Origin: a bacterium
GTDB taxonomy: Bacteria > Patescibacteriota > Minisyncoccia > Phycocordibacterales > CAIZLB01
Reading direction: 5' to 3'
DNA: 64,000 bases
Assembly (NCBI GenBank): GCA_027490575.1
Contig: JAIXXV010000032.1
Span: 13,211-77,210, forward strand
The translations under genes were made by a program, and so were the position numbers. Below, in pieces: positions 6,782-46,817 of the stretch (positions within the stretch are counted from its first letter, which is position 1; every line of letters begins with the position of its first letter). The notes beneath the pieces are model-generated. The model made no database searches, was not told the origin of the DNA, and was given only the letters and a program-made list of their open reading frames with translations.

Positions 6782-7058
6782 TTACATAGGGCTACTTGTT
6801 GCACCTTGGCATATTTAGACGTCCTTTACATGTCTTTTAAAATACTTATATTTTAGGCAATACTTTGCCATTATTGTCGCCTTTTACATTTAAAATGGTA
6901 GTGGTATTATTGTCTCATATTAACCAGTGCGGTTGATTTGTCTGTTTGACTTTTACATGCTAGAAAAAACTTTATAAATAATTCATTATTTATAAGTATC
7001 ATTGTGTATGACAAGTTTAAGACATTGTCCGTAATTATTTCAGAATTTTATAAATACT

Positions 7059-8315: not shown

Positions 8316-8321
8316 TATTAA

Positions 8322-8420
8322 TAATAACCTTTTTCAAGAGAACAGAGATTTTCTGCTGAAAATCTCTTCTGTTCGTTACAACTACCAAGTCTCTTGAAAA
8401 AGGTTATTATTTTATATACA
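8322..8420 (+). terminator. Compound (nested inverted-repeat) terminator after ftsZ
   Basis: Outer inverted repeat AATAACCTTTTTCAAGAGA...TCTCTTGAAAAAGGTTATT encloses the inner hairpin GAACAGAGATTTTC...GAAAATCTCTTCTGTTC. Confidence 0.55.
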
Positions 8421-8573
8421 AAAGGAGACAACCGACACTTGCAACTCGCAAGCCTATCTAAAACACTTGTTTATCATTTAATGACAAGAACATTTGAAAC
8501 AACAATATTTACTGAATAAAAAAGAAGCTGGTGGGTTTGATTACCCTACCAGCTTTTTGATTTTGATTTTTGG

Positions 8574-8954
8574 TCAAGTGAAAGAACTTGCTGAGGAGCG
8601 GGATCTTTTGATAAAAACCAGCCTGCTAACAACTTGACCCAAGTACATAGCAGAAAAGGCCAGCATCATCCCTACAAATGAAGATATTGTTCGACTAAAA
8701 GCTATAACAACATCAGAATACGTGTATCCTAACTTGTGATACAAATCAAAAATACCAAGGTCTTTTGTCACCCTCCCGCCTGTCTCCTGCATTATATACA
8801 TGTAGATATACGGGTATCCGATATAGCTTTGGAAAATCCTGTATCCATTGTACCAAAGGCACAAAAATACAAGACAAATAATCACCTTGGCCAAATTGAT
8901 TGTGGTTGCTGTGACAAGTGGTTTATCCTCCATCAGGAATCGATGCTTGCTCAT
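8574..8954 (-). CDS. Hypothetical membrane protein
   Basis: 126-aa ORF with hydrophobic segments; no recognisable family. Confidence 0.3.
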   Translation of the reverse strand: MSKHRFLMEDKPLVTATTINLAKVIICLVFLCLWYNGYRIFQSYIGYPYIYMYIMQETGGRVTKDLGIFDLYHKLGYTYSDVVIAFSRTISSFVGMMLAFSAMYLGQVVSRLVFIKRSRSSASSFT

Positions 8955-9162
8955 ATTATATTAATTTTGGTTTTAATTTTGGTTTTTGAATTAGCGTTGT
9001 TTTTTATATTATTGTTTTTATTATTTTACTTGTGCTTGTTTATAGTTGTCTTTGTATGAAAATGTGCATTTAAATATGCATAGGAACAAAGAACAAAACT
9101 GCAATGAGAGTACATCTGTTATGGTACAAAATCAAGTGACGTGGTGACGAAAAAATTATATA

Positions 9163-10143
9163 ATGTGCTTTATGAATTCTTCAGAAAATATTTATGATCT
9201 TATCATTATTGGTGGTGGTCCTGCAGGCGTTGCAGCAGGTGTTTATGCATCTCGTAAAAAGCTTCGCACGCTCTTTTTGACAACAGACTTTTTAGGACAG
9301 AGCTCTGTTTCAGAAGGCATTGAAAACTGGATTGGTACTATCAAGATTAGTGGCACAGATCTATCAAAAGACCTTGAGGCTCATTTGCGTGCCTATGCTG
9401 GCGATATTGTGGATATAAAGACAGGTATATGGGTTAAGGATATCAAAAATCTCTCAGAACCTTCGCCTGCATCTACCCTATTTGAAGTAACAACAAAAGA
9501 CTATTCAGAAAAAGAAAGCTCGTACAAAGGCAAGACGGTACTTATAACCACTGGTAGTACACGTCGAAAACTTCCAGCTAAAAATGCTGATGTATTTGAG
9601 CATAAAGGTCTTACTTATTGTGCAACTTGTGATGGGCCTATCTTCTCTGGACAAGATGTTGCAGTCATCGGTGGAGGTAACGCTGCTTTTGAAAGTGCGG
9701 CTCAACTCGCTGCTTACTGTAAATCAGTGACTATAGTTAACCGTACTGACAAGTTTAGAGCTGACCCTGTTACAGTTGAGAAAGTTTGTGCTATGCCAAA
9801 CATGAAGGTTGTGACAGGTGTAGTTGTCGAAGAAATACTTGGAGATAAGTTTGTCAGTGGTTTTACATACAAAAAAGACGGATCAGATGTACTCGAGACA
9901 CTAGCGGTTACCGGTATCTTTGTGGAGATAGGACTAATACCAAACACTAGTTTCGCAAAGGAGGTAGTAGAGATAGACGCATATGGAAAGATAGCCGTTG
10001 ACCCTCGAACACAACAGACCAAAACAGCTGGCATATGGGCAGCTGGTGACTGTACAGATGGACTTTACCACCAAAACAACATTGCAGCAGGTGATGCAGT
10101 GAAGGCTTTGGAAGATATATATGTGAATTTGTTTACGAGGTAA
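9163..10143 (+). CDS. trxB: Thioredoxin-disulfide reductase
   Basis: FAD-binding GGGPAG, the redox-active CATCDG motif and the NADPH-binding GGGNAA motif. Confidence 0.88.
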   Translation: MCFMNSSENIYDLIIIGGGPAGVAAGVYASRKKLRTLFLTTDFLGQSSVSEGIENWIGTIKISGTDLSKDLEAHLRAYAGDIVDIKTGIWVKDIKNLSEPSPASTLFEVTTKDYSEKESSYKGKTVLITTGSTRRKLPAKNADVFEHKGLTYCATCDGPIFSGQDVAVIGGGNAAFESAAQLAAYCKSVTIVNRTDKFRADPVTVEKVCAMPNMKVVTGVVVEEILGDKFVSGFTYKKDGSDVLETLAVTGIFVEIGLIPNTSFAKEVVEIDAYGKIAVDPRTQQTKTAGIWAAGDCTDGLYHQNNIAAGDAVKALEDIYVNLFTR

Positions 10144-10361
10144 TTTCAGCACTTCAGAAACTTTAAAAAACAATCTTTATTTTATTTGACACCCCTTTGT
10201 CAAAATGGTTTTATATATCACAGAAACGACTGTCGGGTCGCTAGCGATATGGTATAAAAAGTGGTCTGGCTTTCAGTCAGCTCTCTTAGGGTAGCAATTT
10301 CCCTACCTATCAGGATCATTCAAAAACATAGGGGCCGACAACCCTTAGGAGGATAATAATC

Positions 10362-11222
10362 ATGCAAAGCGAATTAGAAAAACAAGTAGAAGGAGCAGAA
10401 GATGGTGCAGAAAAAGACGAAATCGACTCGAGCATCTCGAGTGAGGTAGTTACCACGACAACAACAGCGCAAGGTGTCAAGCTTACCGAGCGAGAGCTCA
10501 GGATGCTGTTTGTCAGGACAAATCTGATTGACGACCTTGTCATGAGTATCGCAGGGAAAGTCCCTAAGAATGAAAAGGATGCCGGCCGGATCAAGAAACT
10601 CATTATTGCGACTCCTGCACAAATCTTGATCTTTGTTATCATTATGATACTGGCAATATTCACAATTTCGTCAGCGAAACATCTTGATCAACTATTCACA
10701 GGGACTGTGTCCAGTGCACTACTCAGTGTATCAGCAATCATGCTAGTTTTTTCCATCATCTTCACGTTGATTTCTGCGATTCGATGGTGGTATGACTACA
10801 AAAAAGAGCAGATTGACGGTTTGAAGAAGGTTGAACTCTTCATCGAGCACTTCCTCGATTCAATCATCCCAATAGAACGAGTCGATCAGGATAAAGTAAT
10901 CCATGAACTAGATGAGTTCGTCTTGGAAAGACTAACAAAAGTCTATCTTCATCTGCAAGCATATGTGGAATATTGCTCTATAAATCACATGATTTCTGTG
11001 TACGGTGTTCCGGAAAATTACGCTGAGTACGAAGAAGAGTGTGAAGTCATGTTTGATATTGCAATTAAAATTGGATGGAGCGTTGGAAATATTAGCCATT
11101 CAAGAGGTCGAATTGCAGGTGCTATCAAACGTCGAATCGATGAACTTGGAGGAGACGGTCTCTGGTCTAATACCTACTACCAGAGATGTGTTCATGGGCA
11201 CACTTGGATATTCCCAACATAA
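10362..11222 (+). CDS. Hypothetical membrane protein (acidic N-terminal region, 2 central TM helices, C-terminal soluble domain)
   Basis: ORF with an AGGAGG Shine-Dalgarno 9 nt upstream and higher GC (~46%) than neighbours. Shares a leader motif with the next gene. Confidence 0.5.
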   Translation: MQSELEKQVEGAEDGAEKDEIDSSISSEVVTTTTTAQGVKLTERELRMLFVRTNLIDDLVMSIAGKVPKNEKDAGRIKKLIIATPAQILIFVIIMILAIFTISSAKHLDQLFTGTVSSALLSVSAIMLVFSIIFTLISAIRWWYDYKKEQIDGLKKVELFIEHFLDSIIPIERVDQDKVIHELDEFVLERLTKVYLHLQAYVEYCSINHMISVYGVPENYAEYEEECEVMFDIAIKIGWSVGNISHSRGRIAGAIKRRIDELGGDGLWSNTYYQRCVHGHTWIFPT

Positions 11223-11242
11223 GTACATGGTATAACCCGGTT

Positions 11243-11272
11243 TGTTTGATGATCCAGTATGCGCTCCGCCTG
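11243..11272 (+). terminator. Intrinsic terminator
   Basis: GCGCTCCGCCtgaaaatGGCGGAGCGTTTT. Confidence 0.6.
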
Positions 11273-11448
11273 AAAATGGCGGAGCGTTTTAATTATTTAC
11301 CTATTTACTTATAGTACAAAAATGCTTTAATCTACCTAGATTTTGGTTGTCGGACCATATCTCCAAACACGTAGCATGGAGTAACGGCCGAAAACCGTTG
11401 TTTCCTGGACCCGAAAAGTCCCGTTAATTTGGCACATTCAAAATACAA

Positions 11449-12249
11449 ATGAGGGGCCGACACTTCTCGCACTCAAATACAATGAAACTCAGTGAAATCA
11501 ACTACCGCTTTACAGTCGAACCTGTATTGAGACTAATCCAATCCATGATGAAAAATGGCAATTACATCACTCCACAGAGCTCAAGCAGAACTCTGTCGAT
11601 GATGTTTTGGCTAAATTCGTCCATACGAAACGAGCTGATGCAATGGACTTTCAAAATTGGTCCATCGTGGCCAGAAGATCCAAATCCTCTAAAATCAATT
11701 ACAGGCGCAATGATTGCATTCATCATTGCATTAGCAGCAGGAGTGGCGCAGTACTTATTTCCAAATTTAGTACCATTTTTGATCATTTTCTTGCCCTCAG
11801 CAGTACTGTGTATTTACTGGACCACACTGTCTTTAGCCGCTGTGGTAGTCAGAATCAAAAAAGCATGCTTTCTTACTGACTTTATCAACATAGTTGGTAC
11901 AATACCGCTAATAAGGAGGCAGCATCTCATAAACCCTGGACATCGTGAAAGTAGCTATGATTACCTTGTCGTGGTGATGCTTTTGCAACAACTCATGAGT
12001 GTTTCCAAAAAGGTCAAAGGTAATACTGAAGACCCGAAGCTAAAAGATGAAGAGAAAAGGCTATATGACTCAGCCTTCAAACTTGGTGTACTAGGAGATG
12101 ACATCTCGGCCGTATACACGTTGGTATATCGGTTGATTGAGGAAAAGGAGCAAGGTAAACCTATAGGATCGGGTCAAAATAGCGGCGGAGATGGAGACGG
12201 CTTTCCAGAACCTGACCCAGACGCACTCCCGACAAGCGTCCTTGGTTAA
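11449..12249 (+). CDS. Hypothetical membrane protein (2 TM hairpin; probable true start at 11482, MKLSEINY)
   Basis: The ORF track start is 11449. The conserved leader motif AGGGGCCGACA lies exactly 20 nt before ATG 11482, mirroring the arrangement of the upstream gene. Confidence 0.45.
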   Translation: MRGRHFSHSNTMKLSEINYRFTVEPVLRLIQSMMKNGNYITPQSSSRTLSMMFWLNSSIRNELMQWTFKIGPSWPEDPNPLKSITGAMIAFIIALAAGVAQYLFPNLVPFLIIFLPSAVLCIYWTTLSLAAVVVRIKKACFLTDFINIVGTIPLIRRQHLINPGHRESSYDYLVVVMLLQQLMSVSKKVKGNTEDPKLKDEEKRLYDSAFKLGVLGDDISAVYTLVYRLIEEKEQGKPIGSGQNSGGDGDGFPEPDPDALPTSVLG

Positions 12250-12383
12250 AGAGACAACGGAAGAGCGCCTGAGAAATCTGAGTAATAGAACGAGATTCTA
12301 GGACTGTGACCACTGTACCTGATAGCAAAGGTATGGTGGTTTTTTATTTGTAAATTATTAGCACCACCCACCTTTTGCACCCA

Positions 12384-12458
12384 ATTCTTAATCCTTAATT
12401 CTTAATTTGCCGGTTCTGTTAATTCTGCGGGCAATTGTCAATTGCTAATTACTAATTA
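12384..12458. repeat. Heptamer-periodic tandem repeat (ATTAGTA/ATTAGCA type), immediately after the nhaP stop
   Basis: cttaatc cttaatt cttaatt ... tgctaat tactaat tactaat shows 7-nt periodicity. Confidence 0.6.
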
Positions 12459-13832
12459 CTAATTGCTCACCTCCAACTTCCTCGCAACCCATTTAGTCAA
12501 AGGCGGTTGTATCACCAGAGTCATAATTATCACCCACATACCTATTGAGATAAGCATTTCAGGGTTACCAATATCGTATTTTGTCAAAAGACCACTGTAT
12601 GCAACTTGCACAAGAAGTACTGCTGGGATAACGCCAGTCTCTCGGACCCATGACATGAAGAGAAGCTCGCGAGTGTTAAGATCAATCTTCTTTGAAAAGA
12701 AACCGAGTGATAGAAATACTGAGGCAGGACGCACGATGAACATAAAGACAAGTCCGGCGAGTATTCCAAACCAAGCGTATTGTAGTAGCATTTGCACATT
12801 GACCAATGCTCCTAGGAGTATAAAGATACTTGGCTTTGCAATCCCCTCCACCAGCTGATTGAAAAATGTTTCTGTCTTGTGCACTTTTTCGTTCAATACA
12901 ACTAGAAGCCCTGCGATGAATGATGCTAAGTAACCACTTCCGCCAAACAGTACCGCAAATGCATATGCCATAATAGGGATAGCGATGAAGAAACCGATGT
13001 CGGCGTGGCACTCCGCACGCATTACCCTTTGTCTAACAAAAAATCGGATTGCAAAGAATCCGATAATACCAACTATTGACCCTACTACTAGCTCTTTTGA
13101 TAGGAAAATCATTGATTCCATAGAGACTAGTGCGCTAATACCTTGTGACATGTGCGTAAAAGCCCCTGCTCTTTCTACATACGTGATAAATGCCAATGTG
13201 ACCAAAGTACCAACCACGTCCGTCAATGCACTTTCTGAAACCAAGATGTCTTTGATACGGTCTTTCTTGAGCTTAAGCTCTTTGAACACAGGGATGATGG
13301 CTGCTGGATCAGTCGATGCAAGTATTGCCCCCAAAAGTAGTGCTAGCGACACGGACATTGTCATACCTGTCACTGTGCCGAGGACCGATAGACCTTGTGC
13401 CATAAAGAGAGTAGATGCCACAAGTCCGATGAAAGATAGTAGTACGGTAGGTAAAACTATTTTTCTAAATGATGAAAACGATATCTCCAAGCCTCCACCA
13501 AAAAGTATATATACCGCTGATATAGTAACTATCATGTTTAGAGCTGCGCTGTTTTCTATAAGTGGTTCCAACAAGTTGTGCATACTTAAACCTATAAACA
13601 AGGCAACTAGAAACGATGGAAATATTGTCCCCCTAGAGAGCGAGTGACAGATGGTACCCAGAAGAAACATTCCTCCTATCAAAAACAGTGGGGTTATACC
13701 CCCTACATGATCCACAGGAATCATTTCCGAATACTGTACAAACAATGCATTGAATATTGCAAAAACCGTAACACTGGTCAAAAGTATAAATGATGATGAA
13801 TGTCTCTTAAGCTTGCTTAGTTTGGCTATCAT
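12459..13832 (-). CDS. Na+/H+ (cation:proton) antiporter, CPA1/NhaP family
   Basis: About 12 TM helices and a typical CPA1 core (ILFGGGLE...ILASTDPAAIIPV). Confidence 0.8.
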   Translation of the reverse strand: MIAKLSKLKRHSSSFILLTSVTVFAIFNALFVQYSEMIPVDHVGGITPLFLIGGMFLLGTICHSLSRGTIFPSFLVALFIGLSMHNLLEPLIENSAALNMIVTISAVYILFGGGLEISFSSFRKIVLPTVLLSFIGLVASTLFMAQGLSVLGTVTGMTMSVSLALLLGAILASTDPAAIIPVFKELKLKKDRIKDILVSESALTDVVGTLVTLAFITYVERAGAFTHMSQGISALVSMESMIFLSKELVVGSIVGIIGFFAIRFFVRQRVMRAECHADIGFFIAIPIMAYAFAVLFGGSGYLASFIAGLLVVLNEKVHKTETFFNQLVEGIAKPSIFILLGALVNVQMLLQYAWFGILAGLVFMFIVRPASVFLSLGFFSKKIDLNTRELLFMSWVRETGVIPAVLLVQVAYSGLLTKYDIGNPEMLISIGMWVIIMTLVIQPPLTKWVARKLEVSN

Positions 13833-14024
13833 ATTGGTGATTAATTTTTAATATATCTTTTCTAAAAAATCAAAAAACCACATGGCGCGCGGCTTTTGTA
13901 TCTGAGGAGAAAATGATCGATGAGCTGATTTGAGATCAGACCACCAACTTTCTCAAACTGAGTTCTAAACCTTTTAGTTACATCAGTACTCAAGTCGTGG
14001 AGGCTATAATTATATTGATTCTTG

Positions 14025-14046
14025 TGGGCGGTAGAGGATTCGGTCC
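14025..14046 (-). repeat. Partial duplicate of the tRNA-Val 3' end (T-arm/acceptor fragment)
   Basis: TGGGCGGTAGAGGATTCGgtCC here versus TGGGCGGTAGAGGATTCGaaCC at 14181-14202. Confidence 0.6.
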
Positions 14047-14180
14047 TTACAGGACCAGTACAGGTTTCCTATTTTCTCAAAGCTCGACAAATCTCGCTTT
14101 TCAAAAATATAGGATAACCTTTTCGAATCCTCCAGAAGCGATGCTTCTGCCGCCTATAACCGTACTTCGTACGATCACTG

Positions 14181-14253
14181 TGGGCGGTAGAGGATTCGAA
14201 CCTCTGACATCAACAACGTCAATGTTGCGCTCTACCAACTGAGCTAACCGCCC
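14181..14253 (-). tRNA. tRNA-Val (anticodon GAC)
   Basis: Reverse complement GGGCGGTTAGCTCAGTTGGTAGAGCGCAACATTGACGTTGTTGATGTCAGAGGTTCGAATCCTCTACCGCCCA folds as a cloverleaf. The anticodon loop is TTGACGT. CCA is not encoded. Confidence 0.85.
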
Positions 14254-46250: not shown

Positions 46251-46817
46251 TCACCTTCGTGCATCGGGAGGTGGTTGGTAGAGCGAACCAACCGTCCTGC
46301 CTGCCTGTGGAATCATCTGCGGAGGTCCATTTTGACCCTGAAGGTCACCGGGTGCGTAGATCATGCCAGTGGCATGATCCATGAACCATGGTTTGGAATC
46401 GTCCAGTGTCACCTTACTTTCGCGAGGAGCTCCGTGGGTCCTTTGGAACTCACGGAGTTGCTCGTCGTTGAAGTGATGGACGGTGCCGTCGTCCATAGTG
46501 ACGGTGTGTGTACGCGTAGCATAGCCGAGCAGACGTCTACCGTCTGGCATAGCCTGGCCGACATGATTGTCGGCTGAGCCTTGGACCACTTGTCCATGGC
46601 CCCACTGGTGATTTGGAGGTTGACCTCCGTTTTCTACAGTTTGACCATTGAATGCCATGGGCGCTTGACCCATAACCACCCCAGGTTGTTGGACAACTTG
46701 GCGCCGCTGTGGAACAGCAATGCAAGAGACGAAGCTGATCATGGTGACCAGTGCCAATACTAACAATTTCACTTTTTTCATGATAATGAACGATTTTAGG
46801 GTTTGCTGAATGTACAC
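46251..46817 (-). CDS. Hypothetical secreted/lipoprotein (signal peptide plus Cys), Pro/Gly/Gln-rich, high-GC gene
   Basis: Begins MKKVKLLVLALVTMISFVSCIA. GC is ~55% against a ~38% background. Confidence 0.5.
   Translation of the reverse strand: MYIQQTLKSFIIMKKVKLLVLALVTMISFVSCIAVPQRRQVVQQPGVVMGQAPMAFNGQTVENGGQPPNHQWGHGQVVQGSADNHVGQAMPDGRRLLGYATRTHTVTMDDGTVHHFNDEQLREFQRTHGAPRESKVTLDDSKPWFMDHATGMIYAPGDLQGQNGPPQMIPQAGRTVGSLYQPPPDARR

Follow-up and report, generated by a model that had tools for sequence, protein, structure and literature searches.

Two neighbouring genes for orphan membrane proteins, gene 1 (10362-11222) and gene 2 (11449-12249), lie in a 64-kb stretch of a Patescibacteriota contig (JAIXXV010000032.1; hereafter the window), and each is preceded by a leader that carries the same short motifs in the same order. 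We consider it possible, at somewhat less than an even chance, that the two leaders represent a lineage-specific cis-regulatory element that would act at the level of the RNA and that is shared by two probable paralogues. Both genes and all features of their leaders are on the plus strand, and coordinates refer to the window unless a related locus, denoted by an L number, is named.

The original prediction had pointed to a box, AGGGGCCGACA, upstream of each of two annotated open reading frames (ORFs; 10362-11222 and 11482-12249). Both ORFs are present, and the box was found at 10330-10340 and 11452-11462, i.e., one copy upstream of each annotated ORF start. Even when one mismatch was allowed, AGGGGCCGACA matched only these two sites in the window, with 0.23 matches expected by chance. 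A second motif, CATTCAAAA, precedes the box at 10317-10325 and 11435-11443, and the composite CATTCAAAA-N(2-12)-AGGGNCCGACA matched only 10317-10340 and 11435-11462 in the window, and 100 shuffles gave no match. Every orthologous locus retains both the box and the composite motif; the sole change in the box of leader 1, seen in L001 and L003, is a G to T substitution at the position adjoining the loop of the hairpin described below. The element had been described as ~27 nt long, with its core ending exactly 20 nt before both start codons. We measured 24 nt in leader 1 and 28 nt in leader 2, owing to a 4-nt indel, and distances of 21 nt to ATG 10362 and 19 nt to ATG 11482, so that the common position relative to the start codon holds approximately, and for gene 2 its value depends on the ATG chosen. 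A sigma-70 or extracytoplasmic function (ECF)-type promoter inside the box was rejected, because the spacing from CATTCAAAA (or GGxxCA) to CCGACA differs by 4 nt between the leaders.

In each leader the box falls within a predicted hairpin. Shared block 1 (10317-10347) ends with UAGGGG[CCGACAA]CCCUUA (10329-10347; loops are given in square brackets), and shared block 2 (11435-11468), which also contains an upstream ATG (11449-11451), ends with GAGGGG[CCGACA]CUUCUC (11451-11468). The 3′ strands of the two box hairpins differ, and both hairpins display CCGACA in the loop; in the second one, three stem pairs vary on one side among the orthologues, and all stay paired. The reverse complement of the box core CCGACA, TGTCGG, is located 98 nt (leader 1) and 103 nt (leader 2) upstream of the box, 12-13 nt into both inferred leaders. 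It forms part of a 5′ hairpin, CGACU[GUCG]GGUCG in leader 1 (10227-10240, with TGTCGG at 10231-10236), which is invariant in the orthologues, and UGGUU[GUCG]GACCA in leader 2 (11344-11357, with TGTCGG at 11348-11353), which is invariant in four distinct sequences. When the two 5′ hairpins are compared with each other, both nucleotides differ in three of the five stem pairs, with pairing retained. The plus strand has five other copies of TGTCGG in the 64 kb, and the chance of obtaining both placements was roughly estimated as ~5e-6.

Leader 2 contains further hairpins between these two elements. The first, CUCCA(A)[...](U)UGGAG, maps at 11361-11381. It is followed by the twin hairpins with identical loops that had been noticed earlier (11383-11421), which are indeed present as AACGG[CCGAAAA]CCGTT (11383-11399) and GGAC[CCGAAAA]GTCC (11407-11421), and in which one-sided changes (A-U to G-U, G-C to G-U) preserve pairing. 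When both strands were scanned, CCGA[AC]A sites fell in loops closed by at least 4 bp in 6 of 6 cases in the leaders, versus 1 of 40 elsewhere in the window (Fisher p = 7e-7). The collinear order common to both leaders is an extended -10 block, TGTCGG, CATTCAAAA and the box or, in RNA terms, a GUCG-loop 5′ hairpin, an A-rich CAUUCAAAA stretch and a G-rich hairpin presenting CCGACA. The earlier proposal of a shared box that co-regulates both genes remains the best reading, since the box is non-random, conserved and part of these collinear features; the regulation itself we infer.

The same motifs could also be read at the DNA level. TGTCGG and CCGACA would then be inverted half-sites ~100 bp apart that bracket each leader, the former shortly after the promoter and the latter adjoining the start region; a transcription factor common to both units would bind them and act as a repressor, through a roadblock or a DNA loop. 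Consistent with such an operator, the arrangement is inverted and similarly spaced in both units (98 and 103 bp), GG(G/T)CCGACAACC occurs in both orientations, and the leader 1 box in L001 is the reverse complement of the leader 2 5′ element. However, two sites of 6-12 bp do not explain the near-complete conservation of the ~150 nt of leader 2, and the inverted repeats that flank the sites differ between them and contain G-T pairs, which are meaningless in duplex DNA. Furthermore, there is no regulator gene within the unit, and no further intergenic sites occur in the 64-kb window. We regard a DNA operator as unlikely. The G-U pairs, and the interchange of G-U, G-C and A-U pairs, favour a sense-strand RNA over a palindrome of duplex DNA, as an argument rather than a proof. 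Two other candidates were discarded: i) the palindrome CCGACA-N4-TGTCGG at 46558-46573, as an operator, because it is inside a coding region, and ii) an invertible segment between the leader 1 box and a 16-nt inverted match in leader 2, because all six related contigs show the segment in the same orientation.

Probable tandem transcription units and the start of gene 2

The two genes had been presented as a two-gene unit. As an operon this does not hold, because between gene 1 and gene 2 there is a conserved terminator, followed by a second promoter-like site. If the promoters are real, the locus consists of two tandem units that are transcribed separately, and each unit has its own promoter-like site, leader, coding sequence (CDS) and terminator. 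Both promoters were read directly from the sequence and are absent from a strict consensus scan, and the positions of the transcription start sites are likewise inferred. Putative promoter 1 (10186-10214) comprises TTGACA (10186-10191), a 17-nt spacer and the extended -10 sequence TGgTTTTAT (10206-10214), and the site is invariant in L001, L002 and L003. Putative promoter 2 (11304-11331) comprises TTTACT (11304-11309), a 16-nt spacer and the extended -10 sequence TGcTTTAAT (11323-11331). The similarity to L005 starts exactly at TTTACT, the proposed -35 of promoter 2. The 5′ untranslated regions (UTRs) predicted from these sites are leader 1, of ~141 nt upstream of gene 1 (10221-10361), and leader 2 (11338-11481), of 111 nt to ATG 11449 or 144 nt to ATG 11482.

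A strong terminator had been claimed, and terminator-like hairpins are present at 11261-11287 and 12308-12341. The intrinsic terminator of gene 1 (11261-11295), a strong one, forms a stem of 10 bp, of which 8 are GC pairs, and continues into a T-tract; it is kept in L001, L003 and L006, and L005 has a different hairpin with a T-tract in the same place, so that all loci have a terminator between the two genes. The intrinsic terminator of gene 2 spans 12308-12350. Downstream of it, the spacer (12380-12460) contains the short reiterated motifs AATTCTTAATTCTTAATT and CTAATTACTAATTACTAATTGCT, and in L005 the spacer after the gene 2 terminator (1040-1142) contains reiterated CTGCTAACTGT variants.

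Gene 1 has an AGGAGG Shine-Dalgarno (SD) sequence (10347-10352) directly 3′ of its box hairpin. With this sequence it is among the few exceptions in the window, because ~18 of the 23 ORF starts examined there have no SD-like sequence and are A/T-rich upstream. This suggests that translation initiation in this organism is mostly SD-independent.

In gene 2, an in-frame ATG (11449) stands directly 5′ of the box, and with this start the box makes up codons 2-5. It is possible, at somewhat less than an even chance, that the gene 2 box is coding sequence, i.e., that translation starts at ATG 11449, that the box encodes MRGRH and that the equal distance to the annotated ATGs is a coincidence of annotation. 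This reading is compatible with the other explanations of the motif and does not compete with them. ATG 11449 is present, with its frame open, in each of the four distinct sequences, the gene callers picked this ATG in L001, L004 and L006, and the two ATGs share the A-rich context TCAAA(A)TACAA(A)TG. The 33 nt between the ATGs have 8 variable columns (24%), compared with 20% in the CDS that follows and 7% in the leader upstream, and 5 of the 8 are third positions. This excess of third positions is not significant, however (about p = 0.09, binomial), the callers picked the downstream ATG (11482) in L002 and L005, and the gene 2 box is almost invariant in nucleotides, third positions included. 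From the sequence comparison, ATG 11449 may be the true start of gene 2, in which case the protein would have 266 amino acids (aa), and 255 aa if it starts at ATG 11482.

Conservation and folding of the leaders

The rates of change were compared using L001, about 85% identical in DNA to the window, as the reference. Leader 2 is 93% identical to L001, while the synonymous divergence (dS) of the neighbouring genes is 0.57-0.93 and that of gene 2 is 0.42; this non-coding region 5′ of the gene is conserved on the sense strand above the neutral rate. Leader 1 is 83% identical, and the spacer between gene 2 and nhaP is 63% identical. Within leader 1 the identity is 93-95% at the 5′ end (10120-10240), ~87-90% in the last ~30 nt before the ATG and ~80-83% in the middle. 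Small ORFs are present in the leaders, and in a check for a leader peptide or an antisense gene the substitutions showed no 3-nt periodicity in any small-ORF frame.

Four or five distinct orthologous sequences are available in total, and the pairing of leader 2 was analyzed on four of them, which are about 96% identical. In the five proposed hairpins of leader 2, 99-100% of the cells pair, versus 23-60% with slid partners. Seven pairs change on one side, and all seven keep a standard pair. RNAalifold retains two of the five hairpins, that of the box and CUCCA/UGGAG, but has the first CCGA as the partner of the 5′ UCGG. The isolated UGUCGG:CCGACA duplex was calculated at about -12 to -13 kcal/mol, and forcing this helix raises the energy over the minimum free energy (MFE) by +1.4-1.6 kcal/mol in leader 1 and +2.7-6.5 kcal/mol in leader 2. 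A search of the whole window against Rfam 15 at gathering thresholds returned two tRNAs only, and a search of region 10100-12450 at E <= 10 gave only two chance matches to small nucleolar RNAs, of 17-18 bits.

If the leaders act as RNA, they could follow a common grammar. A 5′-end hairpin loop (U)GUCG(G) would be the first element, and one or more internal hairpins the second, with leader 2 having two of them with CCGAAAA loops. An unpaired A-rich stretch, CAUUCAAAA(A/U)ACA, would follow, and a G-rich hairpin with a CCGACA loop would come last, adjoining the initiation region, i.e., the SD of gene 1, and one or both AUGs of gene 2. The leader would toggle between the two local hairpins and a 5′-3′ contact, formed either by the loops or by the long-range helix UGUCGG:CCGACA. 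A shared RNA-binding factor with specificity for CCGA-loops might set this toggle, which would determine the accessibility of the initiation region and would thereby co-regulate both genes. A more specific version of this scheme is a new, lineage-restricted RNA switch in which the 5′ GUCG-loop hairpin kisses the CCGA-loop hairpins, possibly via a ligand or a protein that binds tRNA anticodon arms, so that both genes are co-regulated; we consider this version very unlikely.

Several results weigh against an RNA-level leader. The middle of leader 1 is ~80% conserved, and some of its substitutions disrupt predicted pairs. The leaders fold no better than shuffled sequences (z = -0.02 for leader 1 and -0.44 for leader 2), and shuffle controls do not separate the proposed structure of leader 2 from chance. 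None of the 24-26 pairs of leader 2 changes on both sides, so no covariation was found in the four sequences, and the distinct sequences are few, four or five. The original prediction had spoken of a protein- or RNA-level box; covariation does not separate these two levels, as none exists. CCGA and UCGG recur, which allows several pairings that exclude one another, and several folds are nearly equivalent. Outside the shared blocks, leaders 1 and 2 resemble each other little beyond chance, since 55 of 1000 shuffles match their global alignment score and 14 of 1000 their local score. If gene 2 starts at ATG 11449, the position of the box relative to the start codon differs between the genes. Finally, the regions upstream of ftsZ (95-100% identical over ~240 nt) and of nhaP (93%) are equally conserved, and high conservation of long upstream regions seems to be general in the lineage and not specific to genes 1 and 2.

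The region upstream of ftsZ (6820-7058) reaches this identity to L001 despite a dS of 0.57 for ftsZ, and it contains three CTTT(T)ACAT repeats.

The leaders could instead be what is left of a tandem duplication, kept by generic constraints (a promoter, a 5′ stabilising hairpin and an A-rich initiation region) in an SD-poor lineage, with no dedicated regulator or switch. Support for a duplication comes from the proteins. Both have the same architecture, with two central hydrophobic segments in each, as had been described, and the statement that they are not obviously homologous agrees with a BLASTP comparison of protein 1 with protein 2 (E = 1). There is a weak collinear match in their C-terminal parts, (M/L)(F/Y)DxAxK(I/L)G...IS (hhalign probability 2%, P = 0.022), and to judge from these similarities genes 1 and 2 are probably old paralogues. 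The equal conservation upstream of ftsZ and nhaP, the prevalence of A-rich starts without SD among the genes here and the flat folding energies of the leaders also fit a leftover. On the other hand, an exact 11-mer and an exact 9-mer survive while the proteins have diverged beyond detection by BLAST, which therefore points to specific selection on those bases. In addition, the CCGA-loop hairpins are confined to the two leaders, and the ftsZ upstream region, when checked for the leader motifs, had none of them. We consider a mere leftover rather unlikely, and the RNA-level leader is retained as our preferred, tentative reading.

The two proteins, their locus and the distribution of the motif

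Gene 1 (10362-11222) codes for a 286-aa orphan with two transmembrane (TM) segments, at residues ~82-105 and ~116-140, and gene 2 (11449-12249) for an orphan protein that also has two TM segments. Homologues of either protein were found in one small clade only: for gene 1, the window protein and proteins 83% and 78% identical to it, and for gene 2, the window protein and proteins 88%, 77% and 45% identical. Word-seeded searches with single sequences and with a profile, and HMMER run exhaustively over 1.84 billion representatives, revealed no relatives beyond this clade. Sequence searches of Pfam, NCBIfam, PHROGs, PADLOC and PDB gave no significant match for either protein; the best profile matches were compositional, to the TM region, with E = 0.0016-0.1, below the cut-offs. 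The AlphaFold models, with predicted local distance difference test (pLDDT) scores of 46 and 44, were too poor for a fold search.

Both proteins evolve fast, because the ratio of nonsynonymous to synonymous divergence (dN/dS) against L001 is 0.43 for gene 1 (dS 0.28) and 0.29 for gene 2 (dS 0.42), compared with 0.04 for ftsZ (dS 0.57), 0.05 for trxB (dS 0.73) and 0.054 for nhaP (dS 0.93). Despite this rapid change of the proteins, both reading frames are intact. When window 11250-12460 was compared with L005, gene 2 showed a mosaic of conserved ends and a divergent remainder. The L005 protein is 45% identical. At the DNA level, an identity of 90-100% is reached over 11310-11535, which comprises the -10 region, the first ~18 codons and the entire leader between them; leader 2 by itself is 93-96% identical. 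Near the C terminus, a block (12075-12150; FKLGVLGDDISAVYxLVYRLIEE) is 83-93% identical and the terminator stretch (12310-12358) 100% identical, and the remaining CDS of gene 2 is mostly 30-60% identical. This pattern suggests that the central and TM part is under diversifying selection, or that alleles have been replaced between ends that stay conserved.

The flanking genes were as claimed, a thioredoxin reductase-like protein (trxB; Pyr_redox_2, 8.9e-38) on one side and a Na+/H+ exchanger (nhaP; 8.5e-43) on the other. The order trxB-gene 1-gene 2-nhaP was recovered as syntenic loci from five assemblies, and the synteny of the neighbourhood is retained in L001, L002, L004 and L006, in relatives of ~85% DNA identity. 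A GC content of 45-46% against a background of ~38% had been reported for the segment; we obtained 41.9% for the segment and 39.8% for the window. An island of higher GC acquired by horizontal gene transfer was ruled out by this value, compared with 41-44% in the neighbours (trxB 41.4%, nhaP 42.1%, ftsZ 43.8%), and by the kept synteny. The description of the segment as an accessory module is not supported either, given that it has no GC anomaly, that its gene order is retained in the relatives and that searches of plasmid and phage collections gave no match.

Scans for the composite motif covered the window, GTDB representative genomes, metagenome contigs and viral contigs, and among the matches listed only the orthologous loci were related. 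The unrelated chance matches amounted to 55 GTDB stretches, 4 viral stretches and, of the at least 80 metagenome stretches that matched, 79 of the 80 among the matches listed. The sole related metagenome stretch among them, L072, is the same contig as L006. A match in Saccharibacteria (L008) was rejected as chance, since it lies inside a high-GC coding region, and a triple match in a metagenome-assembled genome of Ignavibacteria proved to be the 3′ end of a multi-copy gene.

Two further observations were made in the neighbourhood. The spacer between ftsZ and trxB (8316-9162) measures 847 nt in the window and 134 nt in L001 and L002, and there appears to be an insertion of ~700 nt in the window; an ORF on the minus strand (8574-8954) within it would code for a hydrophobic protein of 126 aa. 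The spacer between nhaP and the tRNA, which contains the structured stretch described next, is mostly 92-100% identical to L001 (93% overall), compared with a background of ~85%. On the minus strand, directly 3′ of the tRNA-Val gene (14180-14253, minus strand), a stretch of ~150 nt (13990-14180) folds strongly (MFE of -66.3 versus -42.6 ± 4.2 kcal/mol in shuffles, z = -5.6) into a structure that resembles a four-way junction. The final 20 nt of the stretch (14023-14042) are identical to the 3′ end of tRNA-Val. The stretch matched no Rfam family and was not called by ARAGORN, and it could be a tRNA-derived structured non-coding RNA or the scar of an attachment site.

Relation to known elements and significance

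The guanidine-II (mini-ykkC) riboswitch consists of tandem hairpins whose identical, conserved loops pair with each other; the pairing governs access to the start region of small membrane-protein genes. The leaders studied here are likewise short 5′ UTR elements with tandem hairpins of identical loops before membrane-protein genes, in which a pairing of the loops would be analogous. They differ from guanidine-II in that the ACGR tetraloops are absent, the loops being CCGAAAA, CCGACA and GUCG, with no Rfam match at E = 10, and in that the downstream genes code for orphan 2-TM proteins and not for SMR, EmrE or urea-carboxylase proteins. In Escherichia coli, the thrS operator is a translational operator that mimics the anticodon arm of a tRNA. 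Similarly, the hairpins here have loops of ~7 nt and lie just 5′ of the start region, where a protein bound to them could block initiation; as anticodon loops, CCGACAA and CCGAAAA would read as GAC and GAA anticodons, a resemblance that may be accidental. In contrast to thrS, the genes downstream of the leaders do not code for aminoacyl-tRNA synthetases, and loop position 33 is a C, not the universal U.

A small hairpin within the first ~25 nt of both predicted transcripts is reminiscent of the stabilising stem-loop of the ompA 5′ UTR, and its structure is conserved here while the sequence of the stem differs between the leaders. Stabilisers of the ompA type need no specific loop, whereas this loop is identical in both leaders and complementary to the second conserved loop. 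As short, imperfect palindromes that recur in intergenic DNA, the motifs also resemble repetitive extragenic palindromes (REPs) and miniature inverted-repeat transposable elements (MITEs). Unlike these, they occupy only two loci in the 64-kb window, both 5′ of genes, and are not multi-copy or mobile; with two copies in the window and, among the GTDB and metagenome matches listed, no related copies outside the orthologous loci, a multi-copy repeat (REP, MITE or the end of an insertion sequence) was rejected. The guanidine-II riboswitch, thrS-type operators and 5′ stabilising stem-loops are thus the nearest analogies, and none of them is a membership.

We conclude that a conserved, non-random pair of leader motifs in a narrow clade constitutes a candidate for a new cis-regulatory leader, to judge from sequence comparison. 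Its practical value is limited, as the element is restricted to one narrow clade and comparative proof is out of reach, and it is further reduced because long conserved upstream regions seem to be general in this genome and not unique to genes 1 and 2. If the grammar is functional, the two complementary loops and the series of CCGA-loop hairpins would provide a mutable handle on regulation in an uncultured bacterium, probably of a small-genome lineage, with very few recognisable regulators. If this is true, two orphan, fast-evolving membrane proteins would be joined in one regulon, which would give a first clue to their biology.

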